Source: an uncultured Methylomirabilota bacterium (GTDB lineage Bacteria; Methylomirabilota; Methylomirabilia; Methylomirabilales; 2-02-FULL-66-22). From it: a DNA stretch of 64,000 nucleotides. The notes under the pieces were generated by a model. It saw nothing but the letters and a program-made list of their open reading frames with translations, did no database searches and was not told the origin of the DNA. Numbering within the stretch: position 1 is the stretch's first letter; each line of letters starts with the position of its first letter. Shown here piece by piece: positions 5,440 through 62,887 of this stretch. Position numbers and translations under genes: made by a program. The stretch is from the NCBI GenBank assembly GCA_963705305.1, contig OY970067.1, positions 3,840,001-3,904,000 on the forward strand, written 5' to 3'.

Positions 5440-5673
5440 GCCCTTCGGATCATACGCCCTGCACCGAATGTATTCACGCGGGACCGCCTGCTGAGCGAGC
5501 CGGCCGTCCGAGGCTCTTCCATCGGATCCGTTTGACAGCCCCCTATCTCTCCAATTACACTCATTTTCATCATCAACTGTGGTCCGGGAGGCACGCGGCT
5601 CGGATGTGGCCTCGCAAGGGGGTCGTGTTGAGATTGGTTGCCTGCGGTTCACCGGCCGGGACGTGAGGGTGAC

Positions 5674-6109
5674 GTGGTGTCGGGGGGCGAAGCGGCTGGC
5701 TTCGAGATCTTTCCGGTGACTGCGGATAGGGGAATCCGTGCTTGGGGACCGGATCTTCCGGAGGTCTTCCGACAGGCGGCCCTGGGCCTCTGGAGCCTCA
5801 TCGTGGAGCCTGCCGCCGTCTCCAGGGTGCAGTCGACTAGGGTGGAGGCCAGCGCCGAGGACCGGGAGGCCCTGCTGGCGGCCTGGCTCAACGAGTTGCT
5901 GTTCCTGTACGAAACCCAGGGGTTTGTGGCCGCGGACTGCGCCATCCAAAGCCTGACGGAGACGACGCTCCTCGCCGAAGTGTGGGGTGAGCCGCTGGAT
6001 CGAAGGCGCCATTTCCAGGTGGGCCACGTGAAGGCGGCGACCTACCACCTGCTTTCCGTGGCTCCCACGGACGGGGGCTGGGAAGGTCGGGTAGTGGTGG
6101 ACGTTCTAG
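5674..6109 (+). CDS. Archease; true end probably VVVDV* at TAG 6107-6109 (one extra T at 6104-6105); as written it reads to 6129
   Basis: TADRGIRAWG, LLAAWLNELLF, VKAATYH, VVVDV motifs; archeases end in D-V/I. Confidence 0.85.
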
Positions 6110-6149
6110 GGACGCGGGAGACCCCGTAGAACAGGAGGGAGCGGATCCG

Positions 6150-6377
6150 ATGGGAGAACAGGTTCTTATTTTCGGGAAGGATACCTGACCCTATACCACT
6201 GCCGCCCGGGAGGACTACGGCAATCGAAAGGTGGTATTCCGGTACGTGAATGTGACTAAGGATCCGGCGGGCATGAAAGAGATGCTCGGATATTCGAAGG
6301 GAGACCGGACGGTTCCGGTGGTGGTCGAGAAGGGAAAGGTCAGCATCGGCTGGGAGGGGGGCGGCTGAGCCGTTTGA
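6150..6377 (+). CDS. Glutaredoxin-like selenoprotein candidate (UXX-star type) with two in-frame UGA codons (6186-6188, 6366-6368)
   Basis: MGEQVLIFGKDT-U-PYTTAAREDY...DRTVPVVVEKGKVSIGWEGGG-U-AV*; RBS AGGAGG; the first UGA is at the glutaredoxin CPY position; TVPV cis-Pro motif; hairpins follow both UGAs. Confidence 0.85.
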
Positions 6378-6471
6378 CAGCCTTCGCCGTGCGCGGAGGA
6401 CCCGAGGGCCAAAAGGCCGGGGGACGAGAGAAGCCTCCGGTTCCGGAAGTTGAAAAGAGGGAGGTGGCGGG

Positions 6472-6885
6472 GTGACCGCCGAGTCGTCGGGCTGGGACGA
6501 GGAAGGCATCCGGGTGTGGCTGGACGAGCTGCGGGGGCTCGACCTCACGGATGCAGAGGTCGAGGCGGCCGCGCAGCGGCTTGTTGAGGGGGGCGAGTCC
6601 GCACTCCCGCTCATTCTGGAACAGTACGGCCAGGAGGATGAAACGCTGCTGGCGGTGGCCACCCAGGCGTTGATGGCCTGGCGGAAGCCGTACCCGGTGG
6701 AGCGGCTGATCGAGCGCTTGCGGGATCCCGGCGTCGATGCATTGGCCAAGGGGCTGATCCTCATGGTGTTGGAGGGATACGGCTTGGACATTCAGGACCT
6801 CCACGTTCTGGGTGTTGGCATCGACCTGGATGCGTTCTTTCAAGAGCCGACGGGCAGCGGCGACGGAGGACAGGAGCCGCGATGA
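6472..6885 (+). CDS. Hypothetical acidic alpha-helical (HEAT-like) protein
   Basis: GTG start with RBS GAGGGAGG; GC3-rich codons; stop overlaps the gpsA start. Confidence 0.65.
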   Translation: MTAESSGWDEEGIRVWLDELRGLDLTDAEVEAAAQRLVEGGESALPLILEQYGQEDETLLAVATQALMAWRKPYPVERLIERLRDPGVDALAKGLILMVLEGYGLDIQDLHVLGVGIDLDAFFQEPTGSGDGGQEPR

Positions 6886-21233: not shown

Positions 21234-22037
21234 ATGATTCGGCGAGCAGCGGTAGCCGGGACCTTCTACGCGGGAACGCGGCAGCAGCTGCGGCTCCAGG
21301 TAGAGGACCTCCTGTCGCGAGAGGCAGCGCCGACGCCGGCCATCGGCGTCGTGGTCCCCCACGCCGGCTATACCTACTCGGGGCGCGTGGCCGGCGCCGT
21401 CTATTCACGGGTGAGCCTGCCGGATACGGTGGTCATCCTGGGTCCGAATCATACTGGATTGGGCGCCGGGGCGGCAATCATGACGGCGGGTGAGTGGGAG
21501 ACCCCGCTCGGCCCCGTCCGGATCGATACGGATCTGGCGCGGGCGATCCTGGCCAACGCCAGGGTGCTGGAGGAAGATCACCTGGGACATCTCCGCGAAC
21601 ACTCGATCGAAGTCCAGCTGCCCCTCCTGCAGTACTTCAAGCCGGCCATTACCTTCGTTCCGATTTGTCTCTTCAGCCACGAATATGGTGCGTGCTGTGA
21701 CGTTGGCCAGGCCGTGGCCGCCGGTCTGCGTTCCGCCGGAAAGAATGCCCTGCTGATCGCCAGCACGGACATGAGCCATTACGTTTCGCGCGAACAGGCC
21801 GCGCTCAAGGACCGGATGGCGATCGAGGCCATCCTGGCGTTGGACCCGGAGAGGCTGCACCGGGTCGTCCGGCAAGAAGGCATCAGCATGTGCGGGTTTC
21901 ATCCGACCGCGGCCATGCTGGTGGCGGCCAAGGCGCTGGGGGCCACGCAGGCGGAATTGGTGCTCCACACAGACTCCGGCGAGGTGACCCGGAACACCTC
22001 CGAGGTAGTCGCATACGCCGGCCTGGTGGTTCGCTGA
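21234..22037 (+). CDS. amrB: AmmeMemoRadiSam system protein B (MEMO1 family)
   Basis: MIRRAAVAGTFY, VPHAGYTYSG, GPNHTG, EHSIEVQLP, ASTDMSHY, SMCG. Confidence 0.93.
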   Translation: MIRRAAVAGTFYAGTRQQLRLQVEDLLSREAAPTPAIGVVVPHAGYTYSGRVAGAVYSRVSLPDTVVILGPNHTGLGAGAAIMTAGEWETPLGPVRIDTDLARAILANARVLEEDHLGHLREHSIEVQLPLLQYFKPAITFVPICLFSHEYGACCDVGQAVAAGLRSAGKNALLIASTDMSHYVSREQAALKDRMAIEAILALDPERLHRVVRQEGISMCGFHPTAAMLVAAKALGATQAELVLHTDSGEVTRNTSEVVAYAGLVVR

Positions 22038-30997: not shown

Positions 30998-31576
30998 TCA
31001 GGGCTGCTCTTGTTCAATCGGCACGCCGTCGCTGAAATGGTCGACGGTGAAGACCTGGATCTCCGCGCCGTGCCGCCAGGCATCCGGCGGGAGGCCGGCT
31101 TTGAGGCACGTCTGCCGGAGAAAAATCTCGCGGCCCCACCCGTATTCGGTCGCAACCTGGGGAAGCAGAAGGCCGTGCCGCGCCCCCTGGCGGATATAGA
31201 GGCCGTGGGTGCCGACCTGAATCGCGTTCGGGTCGCGCAGGGGCTGCAGGGGAGAGAGGACGGAAATCTCCAACTGGAGGTGGGAGAGCTCCTCTGCGGT
31301 GGCGGCGGGAAAGCGCGGATCCGATGTGGCGGCAGCAACGGCACAATGGGCCACCACCTCGGCCAGCGGCTGCACGGCTTGAATGAATCCAATGCACCCC
31401 CGCAGGGCGCCATCCTTGGTGAGGGTTACAAAAGCGGCCCCGGGGGCGTCCAGGACCGAGTCGGGGGGGTGCGAGGCGGCGGGGGGAAGTTTGCGAACAT
31501 GGCTGCGAATCGCCTGTCGGGCGATGGCGAGAAGGGTGGCGCGGTGCTGCGGAGACAGCACGGGGGCCGGATGCAT
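30998..31576 (-). CDS. amrA: AmmeMemoRadiSam system protein A (AMMECR1 family)
   Basis: AFVTLTKDGALRGCIG, DPRFP, EISVLSP, GLLLPQVA, KAGL. Confidence 0.93.
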   Translation of the reverse strand: MHPAPVLSPQHRATLLAIARQAIRSHVRKLPPAASHPPDSVLDAPGAAFVTLTKDGALRGCIGFIQAVQPLAEVVAHCAVAAATSDPRFPAATAEELSHLQLEISVLSPLQPLRDPNAIQVGTHGLYIRQGARHGLLLPQVATEYGWGREIFLRQTCLKAGLPPDAWRHGAEIQVFTVDHFSDGVPIEQEQP

Positions 31577-31920
31577 ATCAGCAGCTGGAGACATCGTCGG
31601 ACCGGGAGGGGTGCGGTGTGACGCGCCGCAGGGAGTGCCGGGCTCTCGAAAGGGACGCGGCGGGACGGGCCGAGACGGAGAGCGGCGCTCGGAGCGAGAC
31701 ATGAGAAGCGAATATGGGAAGGTGGGGGAGCATGCCGGTATTCACTGCGTGCCTCGTGCATCAACCCACGGGTGTATCCATTCCGGAGCGCATGAATGCT
31801 CCGGAATATATGCCAGACACCCCGGTTTTGCAATTGGTGGTTTCAACAGGCCCGGCCGAGACGGTTGCCCCGTGTCGATCGACGCCTGTGTCCGCTTGAC
31901 ACCCGGTATGTAGCGTGTTA

Positions 31921-32608: not shown

Positions 32609-33724
32609 ATGCCCATGGGCGTCACGGTCTACATTCCCACTCCGTACCGCCAATTCACGAACAATCAGGGGCGGGTGGAGGTCGAGGGGAATGATGTCTT
32701 GGCACTGATCCGGGAACTGGAGCGGCGCTACCCCGGGCTGCGCGAGCGGATCCTGGCGCCGGATGGCAGCCTGTTTCGCCACTTGAACGTGTACGTGAAC
32801 GACCGCGCCGTGGAGGAGCTGCAAGGCGTGCAGACTCCGCTCCGGGACGGCGACCGGGTGGCGGTCATTCCCGCCATGGCGGGCGGCACGGACAAGGCCG
32901 GGGGAGGACTGGCCTTCACCGAGGACCAGATCCGGCGCTACAGCCGCCACATCATCCTGCCCGATGTCGGCGGCAAGGGGCAGCGCCGCCTACTCAACAG
33001 CAAGGTGCTGCTGATCGGGGCCGGAGGGTTGGGTTCGCCGGCGGCGCTCTACCTGGCGGCGGCGGGAGTCGGGACGCTGGGGATCGTGGACTTCGACGCG
33101 GTGGACCTGAGCAACTTGCAGCGTCAGATCCTACACCACATGCACGATATCGGACGGCCCAAGGTGCAGTCGGCCGCGGAAAGCATCGCCGATCTCAATC
33201 CGGATGTGAAGGTCATCCCCTATGAGACGGCGTTGTCCTCCGAGAACGTCCGCCGGATTTTTGCCGACTACGATGTCATCGTGAACGGATCGGATAACTT
33301 CCCCACGCGATACCTGGCCAATGACGCCTGCGTGCTTCTGGGGAAGCCGATGGTGGATGGAAGCATTTTCAAGTTCGAGGGACAGGTCACCGTCTTCGTG
33401 CCGGGACAGGGCTGCTACCGCTGCCTCTACCCGGCCCCGCCGCCTCCCGGCGTGGTCCCGAGCTGTCAGGAGGCCGGGGTCCTGGGGGTGGTCTGCGGCG
33501 TAGTGGCCTCGATTCAAGGGGTGGAGACCATCAAGCTGCTCCTGGGGTTGGGCGACCCCCTGGTCGGACGCCTGCTGTTCTTCGACGCCCTGGCGATGGA
33601 GTTCCGGCAGGTCAAGTTTCGGAGGGACCCGAGCTGCCCCGTGTGCGGGGACAACCCGACGGTCACCGAGCTTATCGACTATCACGAGTTCTGCGGGATG
33701 CCGCCCACGGCGCGCGTGAGCTAG
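32609..33724 (+). CDS. MoaD/ThiS ubiquitin-like domain fused to a MoeB/ThiF (E1-like) adenylyltransferase
   Basis: Ubl ending IPAMAGG (GG at 32882-32887), then RYSRHIILP, GAGGLGSP, DLSNLQRQ, CYRC, CPVC; no rhodanese domain. Confidence 0.93.
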   Translation: MPMGVTVYIPTPYRQFTNNQGRVEVEGNDVLALIRELERRYPGLRERILAPDGSLFRHLNVYVNDRAVEELQGVQTPLRDGDRVAVIPAMAGGTDKAGGGLAFTEDQIRRYSRHIILPDVGGKGQRRLLNSKVLLIGAGGLGSPAALYLAAAGVGTLGIVDFDAVDLSNLQRQILHHMHDIGRPKVQSAAESIADLNPDVKVIPYETALSSENVRRIFADYDVIVNGSDNFPTRYLANDACVLLGKPMVDGSIFKFEGQVTVFVPGQGCYRCLYPAPPPPGVVPSCQEAGVLGVVCGVVASIQGVETIKLLLGLGDPLVGRLLFFDALAMEFRQVKFRRDPSCPVCGDNPTVTELIDYHEFCGMPPTARVS

Positions 33725-33803
33725 GCGTGGGGTGCCGGGGCAGACTGGCGGTGAGCCGCGTCCCCGTGCGTCCGGGGGGGGCGAGGCCGGAAGCGGAGCC
33801 TTG

Positions 33804-34304
33804 ATGCGGGATGGCACTGCCGGCGGGACATTCCTGGATCTTCCGGAAACGCAGATGCGAGAGATCGTCCGCCAGGCAGAGGCGGGGTATCCGGAGGAAA
33901 TATGCGGGGTCGTCGTGGGACGGCCTGGCGCGCCCGAGACCTACCAGGTCCGCCAGATCCGGAATATTGCCAACGCCGACCCGCAACGGGATCCCAAGGG
34001 GGTGCCCCGGGACGCGCGCACGGCCTATCGCATGGATGACCTGGAGCTCCTACGCGTCCTGCGGGAGGCTGAGAGCCTGAGACACGAGGTGGTGGCCTTC
34101 TACCATTCCCACCCGGACCATGATGCCTGCTTCTCCGCCATGGACCGTGATCGGGCACTTCTCTCCGGCGAGCCGCTCTGGCCCGGAGCCAGTTATCTGA
34201 TCGTGTCGGTGCGCTCCGGCCGGGCCCGCGACGCGCGAGCGTACTTCTGGAACGGCGCGGCCCGGGGTTTTGTCGAGTGCCCGGCTGTGCTCCCTCCCTC
34301 CTGA
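33804..34304 (+). CDS. JAB/MPN+ (M67, Mec+-like) metallopeptidase
   Basis: YPEEICG and YHSHPDHDACFSAMD (E..HxHx7Sx2D). Confidence 0.92.
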   Translation: MRDGTAGGTFLDLPETQMREIVRQAEAGYPEEICGVVVGRPGAPETYQVRQIRNIANADPQRDPKGVPRDARTAYRMDDLELLRVLREAESLRHEVVAFYHSHPDHDACFSAMDRDRALLSGEPLWPGASYLIVSVRSGRARDARAYFWNGAARGFVECPAVLPPS

Positions 34305-35175: not shown

Positions 35176-35274
35176 ATCGCCCCCCGTGCCGCCTGAGAAA
35201 TATGCCTGGTTTGTGAGTCGGATTTTTGCTTGACATGTTTCTGTTGGGCTGGTTAAATCCGCCAGCATCGCTGA

Positions 35275-35397
35275 CTCATCCAGAGTGGCAGAGGGACTGG
35301 CCCTGAGAAGCCACGGCAACCCCGGTTGAAACGTCGGACGAGGGGTGCCAACTCCAGCCTCTACCCTGGTGGTCGAACGGGGGAGGGGAGAGATGAG
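35275..35397 (+). ncRNA. SAM-I (S-box) riboswitch
   Basis: CTCATCCAGAG-TGGCAGAGGGACTGGCCCTGAGAAGCCACGGCAACC...GGTGCCAACTCCAGC...AGATGAG; P1 CTCATC/GATGAG; TTGACA at 35230 upstream. Confidence 0.96.
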
Positions 35398-35421
35398 AAG
35401 GCGGCTGACGATCGGTTTCGT

Positions 35422-35730: not shown

Positions 35731-37002
35731 ATGGGACACGTGAAAGGCCTGAAGTGTCGTGAGTGTGCGCGGCCGTATCCCGCCCAGCCACGGCACGTCT
35801 GCGAGTTCTGTTTCGGCCCGCTGGAGGTGGATTACGATTATCAGGCCATTCGCCAGCAGCTGACGAAGCAATCCATCCAGGAGGGGCCGCCCACCATGTG
35901 GCGCTACCGCGCGCTGCTGCCGATTGACGGCGAGCCGGCGGTGGGCCGCCATTGCGGTTTTACCCCGCTGGTGCGGGCGCGCAACCTCGGGAAGGCCCTG
36001 GGGCTCCTCAATCTGTACGTGAAGAACGACACGGTGAACCACCCCACGCTGTCCTTCAAGGACCGGGTCGTCGCCGTGGCGGTGAACAAGGCGATGGAGT
36101 TCGGGTTCCCTGTGGTCGCCTGCGCCTCCACCGGGAACTTGGCAAACTCGGTGGCGGCGCATGCGGCGGAGGGGGGACTGACCAGCTTCGTCTTCATCCC
36201 CTCCGACCTGGAGCAGGGGAAGGTGGTGGGAACCGCCATCTATGCTCCCAACGTCATCGCGGTGGATGGGACCTATGACGAGGTGAACCGCCTGTGCAGC
36301 GAAGTGGCGGACAAGTACGGCTGGGCCTTCGCCAACATCAACCTGCGGCCCTACTACGCCGAAGGCTCCAAGACCTTCGGCTACGAGATCGCCGAGCAGC
36401 TGGGCTGGCGGGCGCCGGATCACATCATCGTCCCGGCCGCCGGGGGATCGCTGATCACCAAGGTCTGGAAGGGCCTGCAGGAGTTCTGTTCGATGGGACT
36501 CATCCCGGAGGTGCCTACGCGGATGCACGTCGCGCAGGCGGCCGGCTGCGGCCCGATCGTGACCGCGGTCAAGGCGGGGAGCGAGGTGATCCGCCCGGTC
36601 AAGCAGCCGCGGACTATCGCAAAGTCGCTGGCCATCGGGAATCCGGCCGACGGCTACTACGCCTTTAAGGTCGTGAAGGGGAGCGGCGGATCAGGCGAGC
36701 ATGCCAGCGACGAGGAGATCATCGACGCGATGAAGCTGCTGGCATCCACCGAGGGCATCTTCGCCGAGACGGCGGGGGGCGTCACCGTGGCCGCGACCAG
36801 GAAATTGGTCCAGCAGGGGCTCATCGGGCGGCACGAGGTGACCGTGATCTCGCTGACGGGAAACGGGCTGAAGACCCAGGAGGCGGTCGCGGGCACTCTG
36901 CGCACCGCCGCGCACATCAAACCGACGTTGAAATCGTTCGACGAGGCGCTGAGCCAGGCCCCGCCAGCAGTCGAGGCGAGCCGGAGAGCCGACGCGGCCT
37001 GA
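35731..37002 (+). CDS. Threonine-synthase-like PLP enzyme, probably an O-phosphohomoserine sulfhydrylase (MetM-like)
   Basis: N-terminal CxxC..CxxC; NHPTLSFKDR (PLP Lys), ASTGNLA, EGSKT, TGNGLK; SAM riboswitch upstream and Ubl downstream. Confidence 0.88.
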   Translation: MGHVKGLKCRECARPYPAQPRHVCEFCFGPLEVDYDYQAIRQQLTKQSIQEGPPTMWRYRALLPIDGEPAVGRHCGFTPLVRARNLGKALGLLNLYVKNDTVNHPTLSFKDRVVAVAVNKAMEFGFPVVACASTGNLANSVAAHAAEGGLTSFVFIPSDLEQGKVVGTAIYAPNVIAVDGTYDEVNRLCSEVADKYGWAFANINLRPYYAEGSKTFGYEIAEQLGWRAPDHIIVPAAGGSLITKVWKGLQEFCSMGLIPEVPTRMHVAQAAGCGPIVTAVKAGSEVIRPVKQPRTIAKSLAIGNPADGYYAFKVVKGSGGSGEHASDEEIIDAMKLLASTEGIFAETAGGVTVAATRKLVQQGLIGRHEVTVISLTGNGLKTQEAVAGTLRTAAHIKPTLKSFDEALSQAPPAVEASRRADAA

Positions 37003-49976: not shown

Positions 49977-50347
49977 GGTGTTCCTCCTTGGAGTGCGCTG
50001 CCAAACGCGTCGGTCGATTGTCGGATGCTACCATGCTATCGAATCCTCCGAAAGCAATGTGACCGACCGAGCCGGGCCTGACCGGGACGGGGCGCGGCGG
50101 GAAGGGAAGCCAAGGCGATGCCCGGGGGGGTGCCGATCTCGCGACGAGCGCTCGCCGCCGGAGCGGGAGATCGGCGCACGTTGCCGGGAAATCGCTTGAC
50201 AGGCCTGCTGGGCGTCGATACGATTTTTTCAGATGGAAGCGCCCGTTCTGGCGTGATCCGCGGACCGCGCCAACGTTGAAACGCTCATCGAGAGTCCGGG
50301 AGCGAGGGGTTTGACGGCCGTCCAGGCCCCGACGCCGGAGACGCAGT

Positions 50348-51200
50348 ATGGAGATCAAGACGCTGGGGGTCATTGGCGCCGGGACGATGGGCCATGGCAT
50401 CGCACAGGTGGCCGCGCAGAGCGGATTGCGGGTGATCGTGCGCGACGTTCGATGACCGGATCCTCCAGCAGGCGCGCTCGCGGATCGAAAAGGGGCTGGA
50501 TCGGCTGGTCGAGTCGGGGAAGATCGCCGGGAGCCAGAAGGCGGACATTCTGAAAATGCTGATCTTTACGACAAATCCGGCCGAGTTCAAGAGCTGCGAC
50601 GTGGTTGTCGAGGCCGTCTTCGAGGATTTTGCGGCCAAACGGGCGTCTTCCTGGAGCTGGATAGGACGTGTCGGCCGGCGGCCGTGCTCGCCAGTGACAC
50701 CTCCTCCATCTCGATCACCCGGATCGGCGCGGCGACCAGGCGGCCCGACAAGGTGATCGGATTGCATTTCATGAACCCGGTAACCGTCCTGCCGCTGGTG
50801 GAAGTGATTCGGGGCATGGAAACGAGCGCGGACACGGCCGCCGTCGCCCATGAGCTGGCCAAGCGGATGGGCAAGACGACGGTCGAGGCCAAGGATTCCC
50901 CGGGATTTCTCGCCAACCGGATCCTCATGCCCATGATCAACGAGGCGATTTTTGCCTTGATGGAGGGGGTGGGGACCGTGGATGCCATCGACAATGTCAT
51001 GCATCTGGGCATGAAACACCCCATGGGTCCGCTGGCACTGGCTGATCTCATCGGCCTGGACGTTCTGTCTCGCGGTCCTGCGCGTCCTCCATCAGGAGTT
51101 GGGTGATCCGAAGTACCGGCCGGCGCCGCTGCTGGTGAAGATGGTGGACGCGGGCCACCTCGGCCGGAAGACGGGTCGCGGATTCTACAAGCACTCATAG
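50348..51200 (+). CDS. hbd: 3-hydroxybutyryl-CoA dehydrogenase, split by three frameshifts (about 50448, 50642, 51063)
   Basis: [57 protein letters not shown] spread across frames. Confidence 0.88.
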
Positions 51201-58868: not shown

Positions 58869-60069
58869 ATGGACCTCGAAAGGGTCATTCCCACACACGA
58901 GTTGGACATGCGGCTGTCGCGCCTGCAGGCGCGGCTGGCCGCGGCGGGTGACGCCGAGGCCGTCTTCATCTTCCAGCCGGCCGATCTGTTCTACTGGAGC
59001 GGGACGGTTCAGGACGCCTGGCTGGTGATCCCGCGGGAGGGGCCGGCGCTGCTCCTGGTCCGGCGCAGCCTGGAGCGGGCGCAGGCCGAGTCCGGGCTCT
59101 CCCGCATCCTTCCCCTGGGCGGCCTGCGCGGCGTGCCGGGGCTCCTGGCGTCCCAGGGCCTGGGGAGCCTCCGCCGCGTCGGCCTGGAGTTCGAACGTCC
59201 TGCCGGTCGAACGATACGCCGGCCTGGCTCGCCTTTTCCCGCTGATGCAGTTTGTGGACGTCTCCCGGATGCTGCGGGAGATCCGGATGATCAAATCCGC
59301 CTATGAGATCGGCCTGATCCGGCAGGCGGCGATTATCCAGGATCATATGGCGCGGCGCCTGCGGGAGGTGGTGCGGCCGGGGATGACCGAACTGGAATTG
59401 GCCGCGGAGGTGGAGGCGGAGGCGCGCCGCCACGGCCATCAAGGATTCGTGCGGGTCCGGCGATTCGGCCAGGAATTCTACTACGGCCACCTCCTCTGCG
59501 GTCCGAGCGGGGAGATCCCTTCCTGGCTGGATGCCGCCACAGGGGGGACGGGGCTTTCGCCCGCGTTCGGGACGGGGCCCGGATGGCGACAGATCCAGCC
59601 CCACGAGCCGATCCTCCTGGATTACGCCGGCGTGTACTGCGGCTACCATTCCGACCAGACCCGGTTGTTCGCTTTGGGGGCGCTGCCGGAGGCGCTGACT
59701 CGGGCATACGAGGCCTGCCTGGCCATTCGCGAGGAGATCCTGGCCGTCCTGTGTCCGGGGACCACAACCGGTCACGTCTTCCGTCGCGCCCAGGCCCTGG
59801 CCGACCGGCTCGGGTATGCGGACCGGTTCATGGGATTGGGCGCCGACCGGGTGCACTTCGTCGGCCATGGGGTGGGGATCGAGCTGGACGAGCTTCCGGT
59901 GCTGGCCGCGGGAGGGGAGGCCACCCTGGAGGGCGGAATGACCGTCGCCGTGGAGCCGAAGATCGTGTGCCCCGGGCTGGGAGTGGTCGGAGTAGAAGAT
60001 ACCTTCCTGATCACGGACGGGGAGCCGGAGTGCCTGACGGTGACGGGTCGCGAGATGGCGGTCCTGTAA
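58869..60069 (+). CDS. Xaa-Pro (M24) peptidase family protein; one-base frameshift at 59193-59199
   Basis: Creatinase-like N-terminus; removing one A gives LEFDVLPVERY..RMIKS; YHSDQTR, GHGVGIELDE, AVEPK, GVEDT. Confidence 0.9.
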
Positions 60070-60147: not shown

Positions 60148-61206
60148 ATGGCCGAGGTGGTGACGCGGAGGGTGCCGGGGAAGGACGAGCGCAAGGAGCG
60201 GGAGAAGGCGCTGGATCTGGCGGTGTCCCAGATCGAGAAACAGTACGGGAAGGGTGCCATCATGCGCCTGGGGGCCTCGGGCGCGCTTTTGCCGGTGGCG
60301 ACGATCCCCACCGGCTCGCTGGAGCTGGATTTCGCCCTGGGGGTCGGCGGGGTGCCGCGCGGGCGCGTCCTCGAGATCTTCGGTCCGGAATCGAGCGGGA
60401 AAACGACCCTGGCGCTGCACATTATCGCCGAGGCACAGAAGCTGGGCGGGGCCGCCGCCTTCGTGGACGCGGAGCACGCCCTGGATGCCCCCTACGCTCA
60501 GAGGCTTGGGGTCAACATCGACGAACTGCTGATCTCGCAGCCGGACACCGGCGAGCAGGCCCTGGAGATCACCGAGGTCCTGGTGCGGAGCGGGGCCGTG
60601 GACGTGATCGTCATCGACTCGGTGGCGGCCCTGGTGCCCCGGGCGGAGATTGACGGCGAGATGGGGGATTCGCTGCCGGGTCTCCAGGCCCGTCTGATGT
60701 CCCAGGCGCTGCGAAAGCTGACGGCCGCAATCAGCAAGTCCCGCACCTGCGTCGTCTTCATCAACCAGATCCGGGAGAAGATCGGCGTCATGTTCGGAAA
60801 CCCGGAGACGACCACGGGCGGGCGGGCGCTGAAGTTCTACACCTCGGTCCGGCTGGACATCCGGCGGATCTCGGCGCTGAAGGACGGCGAGGAGGTCATC
60901 GGCAGCCGGGTGAAGGTCAAGGTGGTCAAGAACAAGGTGGCCCCCCCGTTCCGCGAGGCGGAGTTCGACATCATCTACGGCGAGGGGATCTCGCGGCTGG
61001 GGAGCGTGCTGGACATGGGGGTCACCCACAAGGTCGTGGACAAGACCGGCGCCTGGTACACCTACGGCGGGGAGCGGATCGGCCAGGGGCGCGAGAATGC
61101 CAAGCGGTTCCTGCAGGAGAACCCCGCCATGGCCAGCGAGATCGAGGGCAAGATCCGATCGGCCCTGGGCATGGTGGCGACCTCCTCGGCGGAGACGGAG
61201 GCATAA
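60148..61206 (+). CDS. recA: Recombinase A
   Basis: [56 protein letters not shown]. Confidence 0.99.
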
Positions 61207-61210
61207 GACG

Positions 61211-62357
61211 ATGGAACTGGCAGATCTTTTGAAGGTCGCGGTGGAGCGGAAGGCGTCCGACCTCCATATCAAGGTAGGAACGCCCCCCGTCCTGCGCATC
61301 GACCACCGGCTGTTCGCGCTGACCGAGATGCCGCGGCTGACCCAAGATACGGTGGTGGCCATGGCGGCCACGGTGATGAATGCGCGGCAGCGCGAACGGT
61401 TCAAGGAGCACAACGAGGCGGATCTGGCCCACAGCGTCCCCGGGCTGGGCCGCTTCCGCATCAACATCTTCCAGCAGCGGGGTATGGTGGGGATGGTCCT
61501 CCGGCTCATCCCCCTCAAGGTCCAGACCATCAGCGAGTTGAACCTGCCGCCGGTTTTGGAGAAAATCGCCATGGAGCCGCGGGGCCTGGTGCTGGTGACC
61601 GGCACGACGGGCTCGGGCAAATCCTCGACCCTGGCGGCGCTGATCGATTACATCAACACCAATCGGACCGGCCACATCATCACCATCGAGGATCCCATCG
61701 AGTTCCTGCACCGCGACAAGCGCTGCCTGGTCAGCCAGCGCGAAGTGGGCATGGATACCATGTCGTTCAGCGAGGCGCTGCGCAGCGCCCTCCGCCAGGA
61801 TCCCGACATCATCCTGGTCGGAGAGATGCGGGACTTCGAGACGATCTCCACCGCCATCCTGGCCGCCGAGACGGGCCACCTGGTGATGAGTACCCTGCAC
61901 ACGCTGGATGCCACCGAGACGATCAACCGCATCATTTCGGTGTTCGCCCCGTACCAGCAGAAGCAGATCCGCCTGCAGCTGGCGTCGGTGATCAAGGGGG
62001 TGATTCTCGCAGCGGCTGATCCCTCGCGCCGACGGGAAAGGGCGGGTGCCCGCGGTGGAGGTCTGCGTCGCCACCGCCACCGTGCGGGACTGCATCTCGG
62101 ACCCCGACAAGACGCGCAAGCTCCAGGACGTCATCGCGGGCGGGGTCAGCCAGTACGGCATGCAGACCTTCGACCAGTCCCTAATGACACTGTACACCCG
62201 CGGCCTCATCACATACGAGGAGGCGCTGCACTGGTGCAGCAACCCCGACGATTTCGCGCTGCGGGTCCGCGGCGTGGAGTCCACCTCGGACGAGACGTGG
62301 CGAGGCGAGGATGCCGGCGTGCCGGCGAAGGGCATGCCGGACATGACAAAGTTTTGA
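61211..62357 (+). CDS. pilT: PilT/PilU family ATPase; one-base frameshift at 62002-62006
   Basis: ASDLHIK, GTTGSGKS, TIEDPIE, ALRQDPD, GEMRD, TLHT; removing one T restores GVISQRLIPRADGKGRVPAVEV..GMQTFDQSL. Confidence 0.92.
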
Positions 62358-62887
62358 TTCCTGCCTGCGGCGGACAGCCCGACGGCCGGGAGAAGGCGCC
62401 GCCGGAGCGGGCCCCGGCCTGGGACGAGGCCGTTCGCTGGCTGGCCCTCCGGGCCCGCAGCACCTCCGAGGTCGGCTGGAGGCTGCGTCGGCTGGGCTAC
62501 CGGCCGGACGAGATCGCCGGGGTGATCGGGCGCCTGACGGCGTCCCGCTACCTGGACGATGCCGAGTTCGCGCGCTCCTGGGTCCGCAGCCGGGCCGAGC
62601 GGGCCGGCTACGGCCCGTCGCGCCTAAGGCGGGAACTTCGCGACAAAGGGATCGACGAGGCCGAGATCGCCGGGGCGTTGGCCGAGCTCACGGCAGAGCG
62701 GGATGTGCGTGACTTGGCGGCGGAGGCCGCCCGCCGCCGGCTGCCGGCATTGCGGGGGTTGGCCTCCGCGGTGGCCCGGCGCCGCATGGCGGGATATCTT
62801 TCGCGGCGAGGATTCGGGGCGGAGGTCATCCTGGAGCTGTGTCGCCGCCTATTCCCGGCCGACGCCGACGACCCGGACCCGCAATGA
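62354..62887 (+). CDS. recX: Regulatory protein RecX (TTG start uncertain)
   Basis: LALRARSTSEV..L, YLDDAEFA, GPSRLRRELRDKGI, YLSRRGF. Confidence 0.88.
   Translation: MIPACGGQPDGREKAPPERAPAWDEAVRWLALRARSTSEVGWRLRRLGYRPDEIAGVIGRLTASRYLDDAEFARSWVRSRAERAGYGPSRLRRELRDKGIDEAEIAGALAELTAERDVRDLAAEAARRRLPALRGLASAVARRRMAGYLSRRGFGAEVILELCRRLFPADADDPDPQ

Follow-up and report, generated by a model that had tools for sequence, protein, structure and literature searches.

A small glutaredoxin-like gene with two probable UGA-encoded selenocysteines in a Methylomirabilota genome

Organization of the locus

The DNA analysed here (the window) is a stretch of 64,000 nt, and the gene of interest lies on its forward strand. 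An ATG at 6150 opens 75 sense codons, which end at a TGA terminator (6375-6377). Translated with TGA as selenocysteine (Sec, U), the candidate coding sequence (6150..6377, including the stop) gives a 75-residue glutaredoxin-like selenoprotein, MGEQVLIFGKDT-U-PYT...GGG-U-AV. Read directly from the sequence, a Shine-Dalgarno-like element, AGGAGGGAG (6133..6141, forward strand), precedes the start; AGGAGG occupies 6133-6138, GGGAG reaches 6141, and the last base is 8 nt before the ATG. The first in-frame UGA is codon 13 (6186..6188, context GKDT-U-PYT), at the nucleophilic-Cys position of the glutaredoxin CPYC motif. The second is codon 73 (6366..6368, context GGG-U-AV-stop), which would specify the third residue from the C-terminus, as the codons of relatives indicate. 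The gene ends TGA (6366), GCC, GTT, TGA (6375), that is, a Sec codon, exactly two codons and a stop. This real stop (6375..6377) is a UGA too, 9 nt beyond the Sec UGA, and a stop occurs at the same place in 80 of 80 relatives (the best 80 of 221 loci confirmed in a scan of species-representative genomes, the source of the counts given here for codons 13 and 73 and for the stop).

An earlier note on this DNA, made from the sequence alone, had described a strong ribosome-binding site, a 75-codon reading frame with UGA in DT-U-PYT and in GGG-U-AV*, and the absence of the gene from the open reading frame track; all three descriptions agree with the sequence. In the standard-code list, the frame of the gene contains only a 45-aa ORF with a GTG start (6231..6368). 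A reassigned genetic code was considered as the origin of the in-frame TGAs and is ruled out, since 26 of the 42 family-supported genes of the 64-kb window end with TGA as their ordinary stop.

An archease-family gene (5638..6129, forward strand; PF01951, 134.7 bits) ends 20 nt before the start of the selenoprotein gene, and the two are probably co-transcribed; a promoter-like site (5532-5561) lies ahead of the archease gene. Downstream of the selenoprotein gene are a hypothetical 137-aa gene and then gpsA. Among the 61 ORFs scanned in the 64-kb window, selA, selB and selD were not found, and no tRNA, tRNA-Sec included, was found in the window. A search for further selenoprotein genes in the window with a strict flank filter gave three candidates, none of them convincing. 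With a looser filter there were 105 candidates for TGA read-through; in the seven scanned against Pfam, no domain spanned the TGA.

Several other features of the window were recorded. In an M24 peptidase gene (59026-60069, forward strand), coding signal begins at an in-frame TGA at 59026, and the first ATG, GTG or TTG follows 72 codons on, at 59245; when the gene is read through this TGA, no Pfam domain spans it and the M24 domain starts at residue 153. A 3-hydroxyacyl-CoA-dehydrogenase-like gene (50348-51195, forward strand) is spread over two frames with at least three frame switches, either as a pseudogene or through assembly indels. A 596-aa ORF (61097-62887, forward strand) joins a PilT/T2SSE ATPase (residues 43-303, with the profile cut at 277 of 370) to three RecX domains (441-579) and shares about 110 nt with the 3' end of recA (60148-61206); it could have arisen by fusion or through a frame error. 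A MoeB/E1-type adenylyltransferase with an N-terminal MoaD/SAMP-like domain (13-93), followed by a JAMM desampylase-like gene (together 32609-34304, forward strand), looks like a ubiquitin-like sulfur-carrier module. A SAM riboswitch (RF00162, 74.1 bits; 35273-35399, forward strand) lies upstream of a threonine-synthase-family gene (35731-37002). The genes for AmmeMemoRadiSam system proteins B (21234-22037, forward strand) and A (30998-31702, reverse strand) are 9 kb apart on opposite strands.

Family membership and predicted fold

Profile searches of the 75-residue protein were run with Cys written for Sec. In hmmscan the protein scored 108.6 bits (curated cutoff 72; E 1.3e-31) with the NCBIfam model NF041114, "UXX-star selenoprotein family 1", and residues 5-75 covered the entire model (profile positions 1-70 of 70). 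An E-value of this size places the small gene at 6150-6377 beyond chance. The parent subfamily NF041212 scored 91.4 bits (cutoff 66), and the Pfam glutaredoxin family PF00462 scored 41.6 bits (gathering threshold 22.9). The earlier note had proposed a glutaredoxin-like protein of a UXX-star (U-x-x-stop) family with its first UGA at the glutaredoxin nucleophile, and these scores bear out both the fold and the family.

With U13-P-Y-T16 and U73, the protein carries a UxxT motif and two predicted Sec residues. When the profile of the 81 members was aligned with solved glutaredoxins, residue 13 coincided with the first CPYC cysteine of E. coli glutaredoxin 3 (Grx3) and Thr16 with the second. Thr is invariant at position 16 (81 of 81 sequences), so the active site is neither C-P-Y-C nor C-G-F-S.

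An AlphaFold2 model built on the 81-member alignment (mean pLDDT 90.8, pTM 0.77) contains a strand at 5-9, a helix at 14-25, a strand at 30-34, a helix at 39-49 and strands at 57-60 and 63-66. No helix is predicted past residue 49, and the usual C-terminal helix of glutaredoxins is missing. The top PDB matches in Foldseek were again glutaredoxins (TM 0.76-0.78), many of them with probability 1.00. The best were cGrx1 (7C12/7C10; TM 0.77, rmsd 1.5-1.9), the A. fulgidus glutaredoxin 3IC4 and the thioredoxin-like protein BC3987. As modelled, the protein is a glutaredoxin fold in which the C-terminal helix and the second Cys of the active site have been lost and a Gly-rich tail ending U-x-V has been added.

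Conservation of both UGA codons

Protein identity to the window sequence was 53-78% across the best 80 of the 221 loci, codons 14-72 included. At codon 13 these 80 relatives have TGA (45), TGC (21) or TGT (14); one of the two genome search patterns had Cys at this position, which may have skewed the proportion of UGA and Cys forms. At codon 73 there are 78 TGA, one TGC and one TCA, and the double-Sec form is thus the commonest (45/80). The earlier note had named Cys at the UGA positions of homologues as a check; the relatives bear the selenoprotein reading out, with UGA either retained or exchanged for Cys (Cys in 35/80 at codon 13, in only 1/80 at codon 73). The only two loci of the best 80 with a codon other than TGA at position 73 are L043 (3217), whose TCA (Ser) differs from TGA by a single base, and L051 (2727), which has TGC (Cys). 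The downstream hairpins of both are weaker (n = 2).

A stop follows exactly two codons past codon 73 in all of the best 80 loci (TGA 51, TAG 20, TAA 9). Codon 75 encodes Val in 81 of 81 sequences through four synonymous codons (GTC 44, GTG 20, GTT 15, GTA 2), and codon 74 encodes Gly in 66 of 81, again with four synonymous codons in use. This synonymous spread points to selection on a translated peptide and not on an untranslated tail. Together with the identity over codons 14-72, it upholds the proposal that translation continues past both UGAs. By these codon comparisons, both in-frame UGAs are conserved over about 80 species-level genomes, and the frame is under protein-level selection past each of them.

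The gene is represented differently in a predicted-protein database, where 43 homologues were found. Cys occupies position 13 in 41 of them. One of the others has Trp at positions 13 and 73, which indicates that its gene caller had read TGA as Trp, and the remaining one starts downstream of position 13. Exactly before position 73, 41 of the 43 stop, as gene callers do at TGA. On the best tree (70 columns, weakly resolved), the Sec/Cys state of codon 13 switches at least about 12 times.

The closest relatives (65-78% identity, among the best 80 of 221 loci) are Methylomirabilota MAGs with the tail GGG-U-[EAHS]-V; the commoner tail is GGT-U-G-V. The order archease/hypothetical gene/gpsA is common only to the seven closest of these 80 loci, where gpsA is 70-74% identical. 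These seven (L001-L007) belong to Methylomirabilota or unclassified MAGs and form a clade with the window at 98% SH-aLRT. Elsewhere, in Acidobacteriota and further phyla, the gene is flanked by housekeeping genes unrelated to these (thioesterase, NUDIX, deformylase, LolA-like, MBL-fold). Clustering of neighbours across the loci was noisy, and no conserved partner or pathway was found.

RNA signals downstream of the UGA codons

The earlier note had placed a hairpin after each UGA. Both stems are present in the window, but neither is more stable than dinucleotide shuffles when the window is taken alone (z -0.44/+0.16 and -0.30/+0.24 for the two hairpins; -0.48 for a 32-nt piece), so that the only support for either hairpin is comparative, drawn from the relatives. 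Searches with the Rfam SECIS families gave no match, either over the whole window at gathering thresholds or over 6050-6550 at permissive E-values.

The first SECIS-like element (6200..6222, forward strand) lies within the coding sequence and pairs UGCCG with CGGCA (6200-6204 with 6218-6222) around a 13-nt loop. Its loop region carries GCCCGGGA (6204-6211), the CGG variant of a motif that is restricted to UGA forms. Across the family, GCCCG[U/G]GA is present at +18..+25 in 46 of 46 UGA-13 forms against 3 of 35 Cys forms. The same signal appears in codon usage: the third base of Ala19 is C in 46/46 UGA forms versus 10/35 Cys forms, and at Arg20 the third base is U or G in 46/46 versus 8/35, CGU being an unusual Arg codon in these G+C-rich genes. 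The G at +22 and the U or G at +23 fall at what we take to be the positions of the SelB-contacting loop bases in the E. coli fdhF SECIS.

Pairing after UGA-13 is less regular than the motif. A short 5' arm (about +14..+20) has two possible partners, 3' arms at +32..+36 and +37..+42, which gives at least two registers; with either partner, CGUGAGGA lies within a large loop. Variation in the arms is compensating (GGCCG/CGGCC, GGCG/CGCC, UGCG/CGCA, UGCA/UGCA), again in a register that is not uniform. RNAalifold found no consensus pairing on the ungapped alignment of this region, and the minimum free energy after codon 13 was no discriminator, with means of -15.9 kcal/mol for the 46 UGA forms and -18.3 kcal/mol for the 35 Cys forms. 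On the weakly resolved tree the motif follows the Sec/Cys state in three of three independent pairs on supported branches (p 0.25); with only three such pairs, the association of the motif with UGA-13 is not phylogenetically independent. The SECIS-type signal that had been proposed after UGA-13 is thus recovered as a sequence motif, with a pairing register that varies.

The second SECIS-like hairpin (6381..6399, forward strand) is in the 3' untranslated region. A 7-bp stem, CCUUCGC/GCGGAGG (6381-6387 with 6393-6399), encloses the loop CGUGC (6388-6392), which corresponds to +22..+26 from the U of UGA-73. At nearly all loci a G+C-rich hairpin of 6-9 bp begins 13-17 nt after this U, just beyond the true stop. 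Its loop has 3-5 nt at about +19 to +28, mostly with G first (common loops are GUC, GGU, GGC, GUU and CGUGC). A helix of at least 6 bp with a loop start at +19..+26 and G within the first two loop bases was present after UGA-73 in 67 of 79 sequences, the window included, as against 11 of 430 stops of neighbouring ORFs at the same loci. The mean minimum free energy was -13.6 kcal/mol after UGA-73 and -6.5 kcal/mol at the control stops; the mean shuffle z over the 79 sequences was -1.57.

A covariance model, R1, was built from nine in-register relatives and recovered the site in 65 of 78 UGA-73 loci at E<=1. In the model-fitted R1 alignment (69 rows, four of them off-target, the window's own site not among the rows), 95.6% of cells pair; shuffles reach 54.0%, and sliding the partner gives no more than 43.5%. 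The alignment holds 161 double changes versus 44.5 in shuffles, and all seven pairs show compensatory changes. This covariation in relatives, with the hairpin frequencies above, sustains the proposal of a SECIS-type signal after UGA-73. Run unfiltered on 6100-6600, R1 aligned only the linear UGAGCCGUUUGAC (10.5 bits) and skipped the window's helix, which begins two bases later than that of the model and has a 5-nt loop. RNAalifold gave no consensus on the ungapped alignment after UGA-73, in which MAFFT had left the hairpins out of register. A further R1 match, at 50303-50340, begins with CGA instead of UGA and was taken as chance. Beyond the SECIS-like hairpin lies a second small one (6401-6423, forward strand), GGCC-AAAA-GGCC enclosed by an outer stem of 3 bp, which lacks a T-run. 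As far as these comparisons can tell, an RNA signal lies at about +14 to +36 nt from each of the two UGAs and goes with the UGA state of the codon.

Proposed decoding and chemistry

In bacterial Sec decoding, SelB with Sec-tRNA(Sec) is recruited to a UGA by a SECIS element. At this locus, SelB and Sec-tRNA(Sec) would be brought to UGA-13 by the SECIS within the coding sequence (6200-6222) and to UGA-73 by the hairpin just past the stop (6381-6399). Translation would then end at the terminator UGA, 9 nt past UGA-73; we infer that excessive closeness to the hairpin at 6381-6399 makes this UGA a stop. In the protein, Sec13 would sit at the N-terminus of helix 1, the classical position of the glutaredoxin nucleophile. 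Thr16 replaces the second active-site Cys, and the partner of Sec13 would be Sec73, borne on a flexible Gly-rich tail that appears to take the place of the C-terminal helix. Chemically, a thiol/selenol oxidoreductase cycle is most likely, in which one Sec would attack the substrate and the other would resolve the intermediate. A putative intramolecular Sec13-Sec73 diselenide, as suggested in the earlier note (a selenenylsulfide in the Cys-13 relatives), would be formed and then recycled by some reductant. Taken together, we regard 6150-6377 as a genuine 75-residue member of NF041114, with a truncated glutaredoxin fold, two SECIS-decoded Sec residues and a thiol/selenol redox cycle, and assign this reading a probability of about 0.88.

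Three other readings of the locus were weighed. If UGA-73 were the true stop, the product would be a single-Sec protein ending at Gly72, and the hairpin would be a transcription terminator or an mRNA-stability element. Gene callers do end 41 of 43 homologues at this codon, a G+C-rich hairpin right after the end of a gene has the look of a terminator, and Cys replaces UGA-73 in only 1 of the best 80 of 221 loci. A peptide of exactly two codons before a stop in 80/80 of these loci, with Val75 in 81/81 sequences through four synonymous codons, would nevertheless be difficult to reconcile with an untranslated tail. Moreover, a terminator scan found no T-run at 6381-6399, only 11 of 430 other stops at the same loci have a comparable hairpin behind them, and the two loci without TGA at codon 73 have the weaker structures (n = 2). 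We consider termination at UGA-73 highly improbable. An origin of the in-frame TGAs in sequencing errors or in a decayed pseudogene could draw on the dehydrogenase-like gene split over two frames, which indicates that indel errors or pseudogenes do occur in the window sequence. Among 80 independent genomes of several phyla (the best 80 of 221 loci), at 53-78% protein identity, the same TGAs recur, both of them in 45 and the second in 78, and this recurrence effectively refutes such an origin.

The main rival keeps the gene and its two Sec residues and differs in function: the protein would bind or carry a metal or metalloid, with the selenolates as ligands. A metal-binding role is mentioned in passages of a 2026 review (PMC13188914). 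Within the window, an ECF sigma/anti-sigma pair lies upstream, and an ORF at 5026-5439 matches the Pfam family Metal_resist below threshold (23.4 bits, cutoff 29.2). Against this stand the conserved neighbours, among which there is no metal transporter, chaperone or reductase, and the fold together with the position of Sec13, which is that of a thiol oxidoreductase nucleophile. We judge a metal-binding function unlikely, and prefer the redox cycle.

Within the redox cycle, the two Sec residues may have unequal roles. Sec73 is more constant than Sec13 (78/80 versus 45/80 in the best 80 of 221 loci), which suggests that it is probably the indispensable reactive centre. By analogy with the C-terminal tail of thioredoxin reductase, Sec73 may also be the residue that meets the substrate. 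In mammalian thioredoxin reductase, a C-terminal redox tail, Gly-Cys-Sec-Gly, is thought to shuttle electrons from a buried centre to the substrate; that enzyme is a flavoprotein, its Sec pairs with an adjacent Cys, and it uses a eukaryotic SECIS in the 3'-UTR. The two proteins are unrelated and may share no more than a near-terminal Sec on a Gly-rich tail, which we use as a working analogy.

We tentatively propose, at somewhat less than even odds, that the Gly-rich tail is a swinging arm that carries Sec73 across the active site to a putative diselenide with Sec13, and that the gene offers a natural test of the SECIS spacing rule. The first part, if true, would provide a natural diselenide redox couple between distant residues of a bacterial protein. 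The second follows from the arrangement of two UGAs 9 nt apart before one hairpin, where the first would be read as Sec and the second as stop; UGA-73 together with a UGA stop occurs in 51 of the best 80 of 221 relatives.

Relation to known families and significance

In comparison with NF041114, the window gene is a full-length member with UxxT, two Sec and a Sec third from the C-terminus, and no difference was found. The other UXX-star families resemble it in combining a glutaredoxin-like core with a Sec three residues from the end, and the window protein stays below their cutoffs: 63.3 versus 100 for family 2 (NF041211), 55.0 versus 97 for family 3 (NF047338) and 52.3 versus 325 for the HUGP/GUXX-star fusion (NF045501). 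E. coli Grx3 (PDB 1FOV/3GRX), a dithiol glutaredoxin, has the same fold, and K-x-T-C/U-P-Y and the cis-Pro motif T/E-V-P align with it over profile positions 1-58. Unlike Grx3, the window protein has neither a second Cys nor the usual C-terminal helix. The selenoprotein glutaredoxin of Clostridia, whose Cys forms cGrx1 (PDB 7C10/7C12) are the best structural match, has Sec or Cys at the first active-site position, as the window protein does, and is listed as UxxC type in the table passages of the review (PMC13188914). The clostridial protein lacks a Sec at the C-terminus and retains the second Cys of its active site (the solved chain reads CPHC), whereas the window protein has Thr and a proposed partner on the tail.

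In a table of the same review (PMC13188914), the family appears as 'Distant Grx-like protein 1' with UxxT and two Sec. There, family 1 is credited to Zhang and Gladyshev (2008) and the related UXX-star families to Haft and Tolstoy (2025, mSystems). In a full-text literature search, "UXX-star" occurred only in this review; the phrase 'distant Grx-like' was not found in main-text passages of Zhang and Gladyshev (2008) and may be in the tables or supplements of that paper. Since the family is present both in NCBIfam and in a published table, the gene is of an already known kind, a correct catch rather than a discovery.

Methylomirabilota are reported in passages of the review to be very selenoprotein-rich, including a MAG of this phylum with 63 predicted selenoprotein genes (PMC13188914). 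The gene described here escapes standard ORF finders, and 41 of 43 homologues were cut short at the second UGA by gene callers, so that genomes like those of Methylomirabilota call for recoding-aware annotation. The comparative data presented here, namely a near-invariant C-terminal Sec, Sec/Cys switching at codon 13, a motif after UGA-13 and a covarying hairpin, do not alter what kind of thing the gene is, and could guide experiments on the function of the family.
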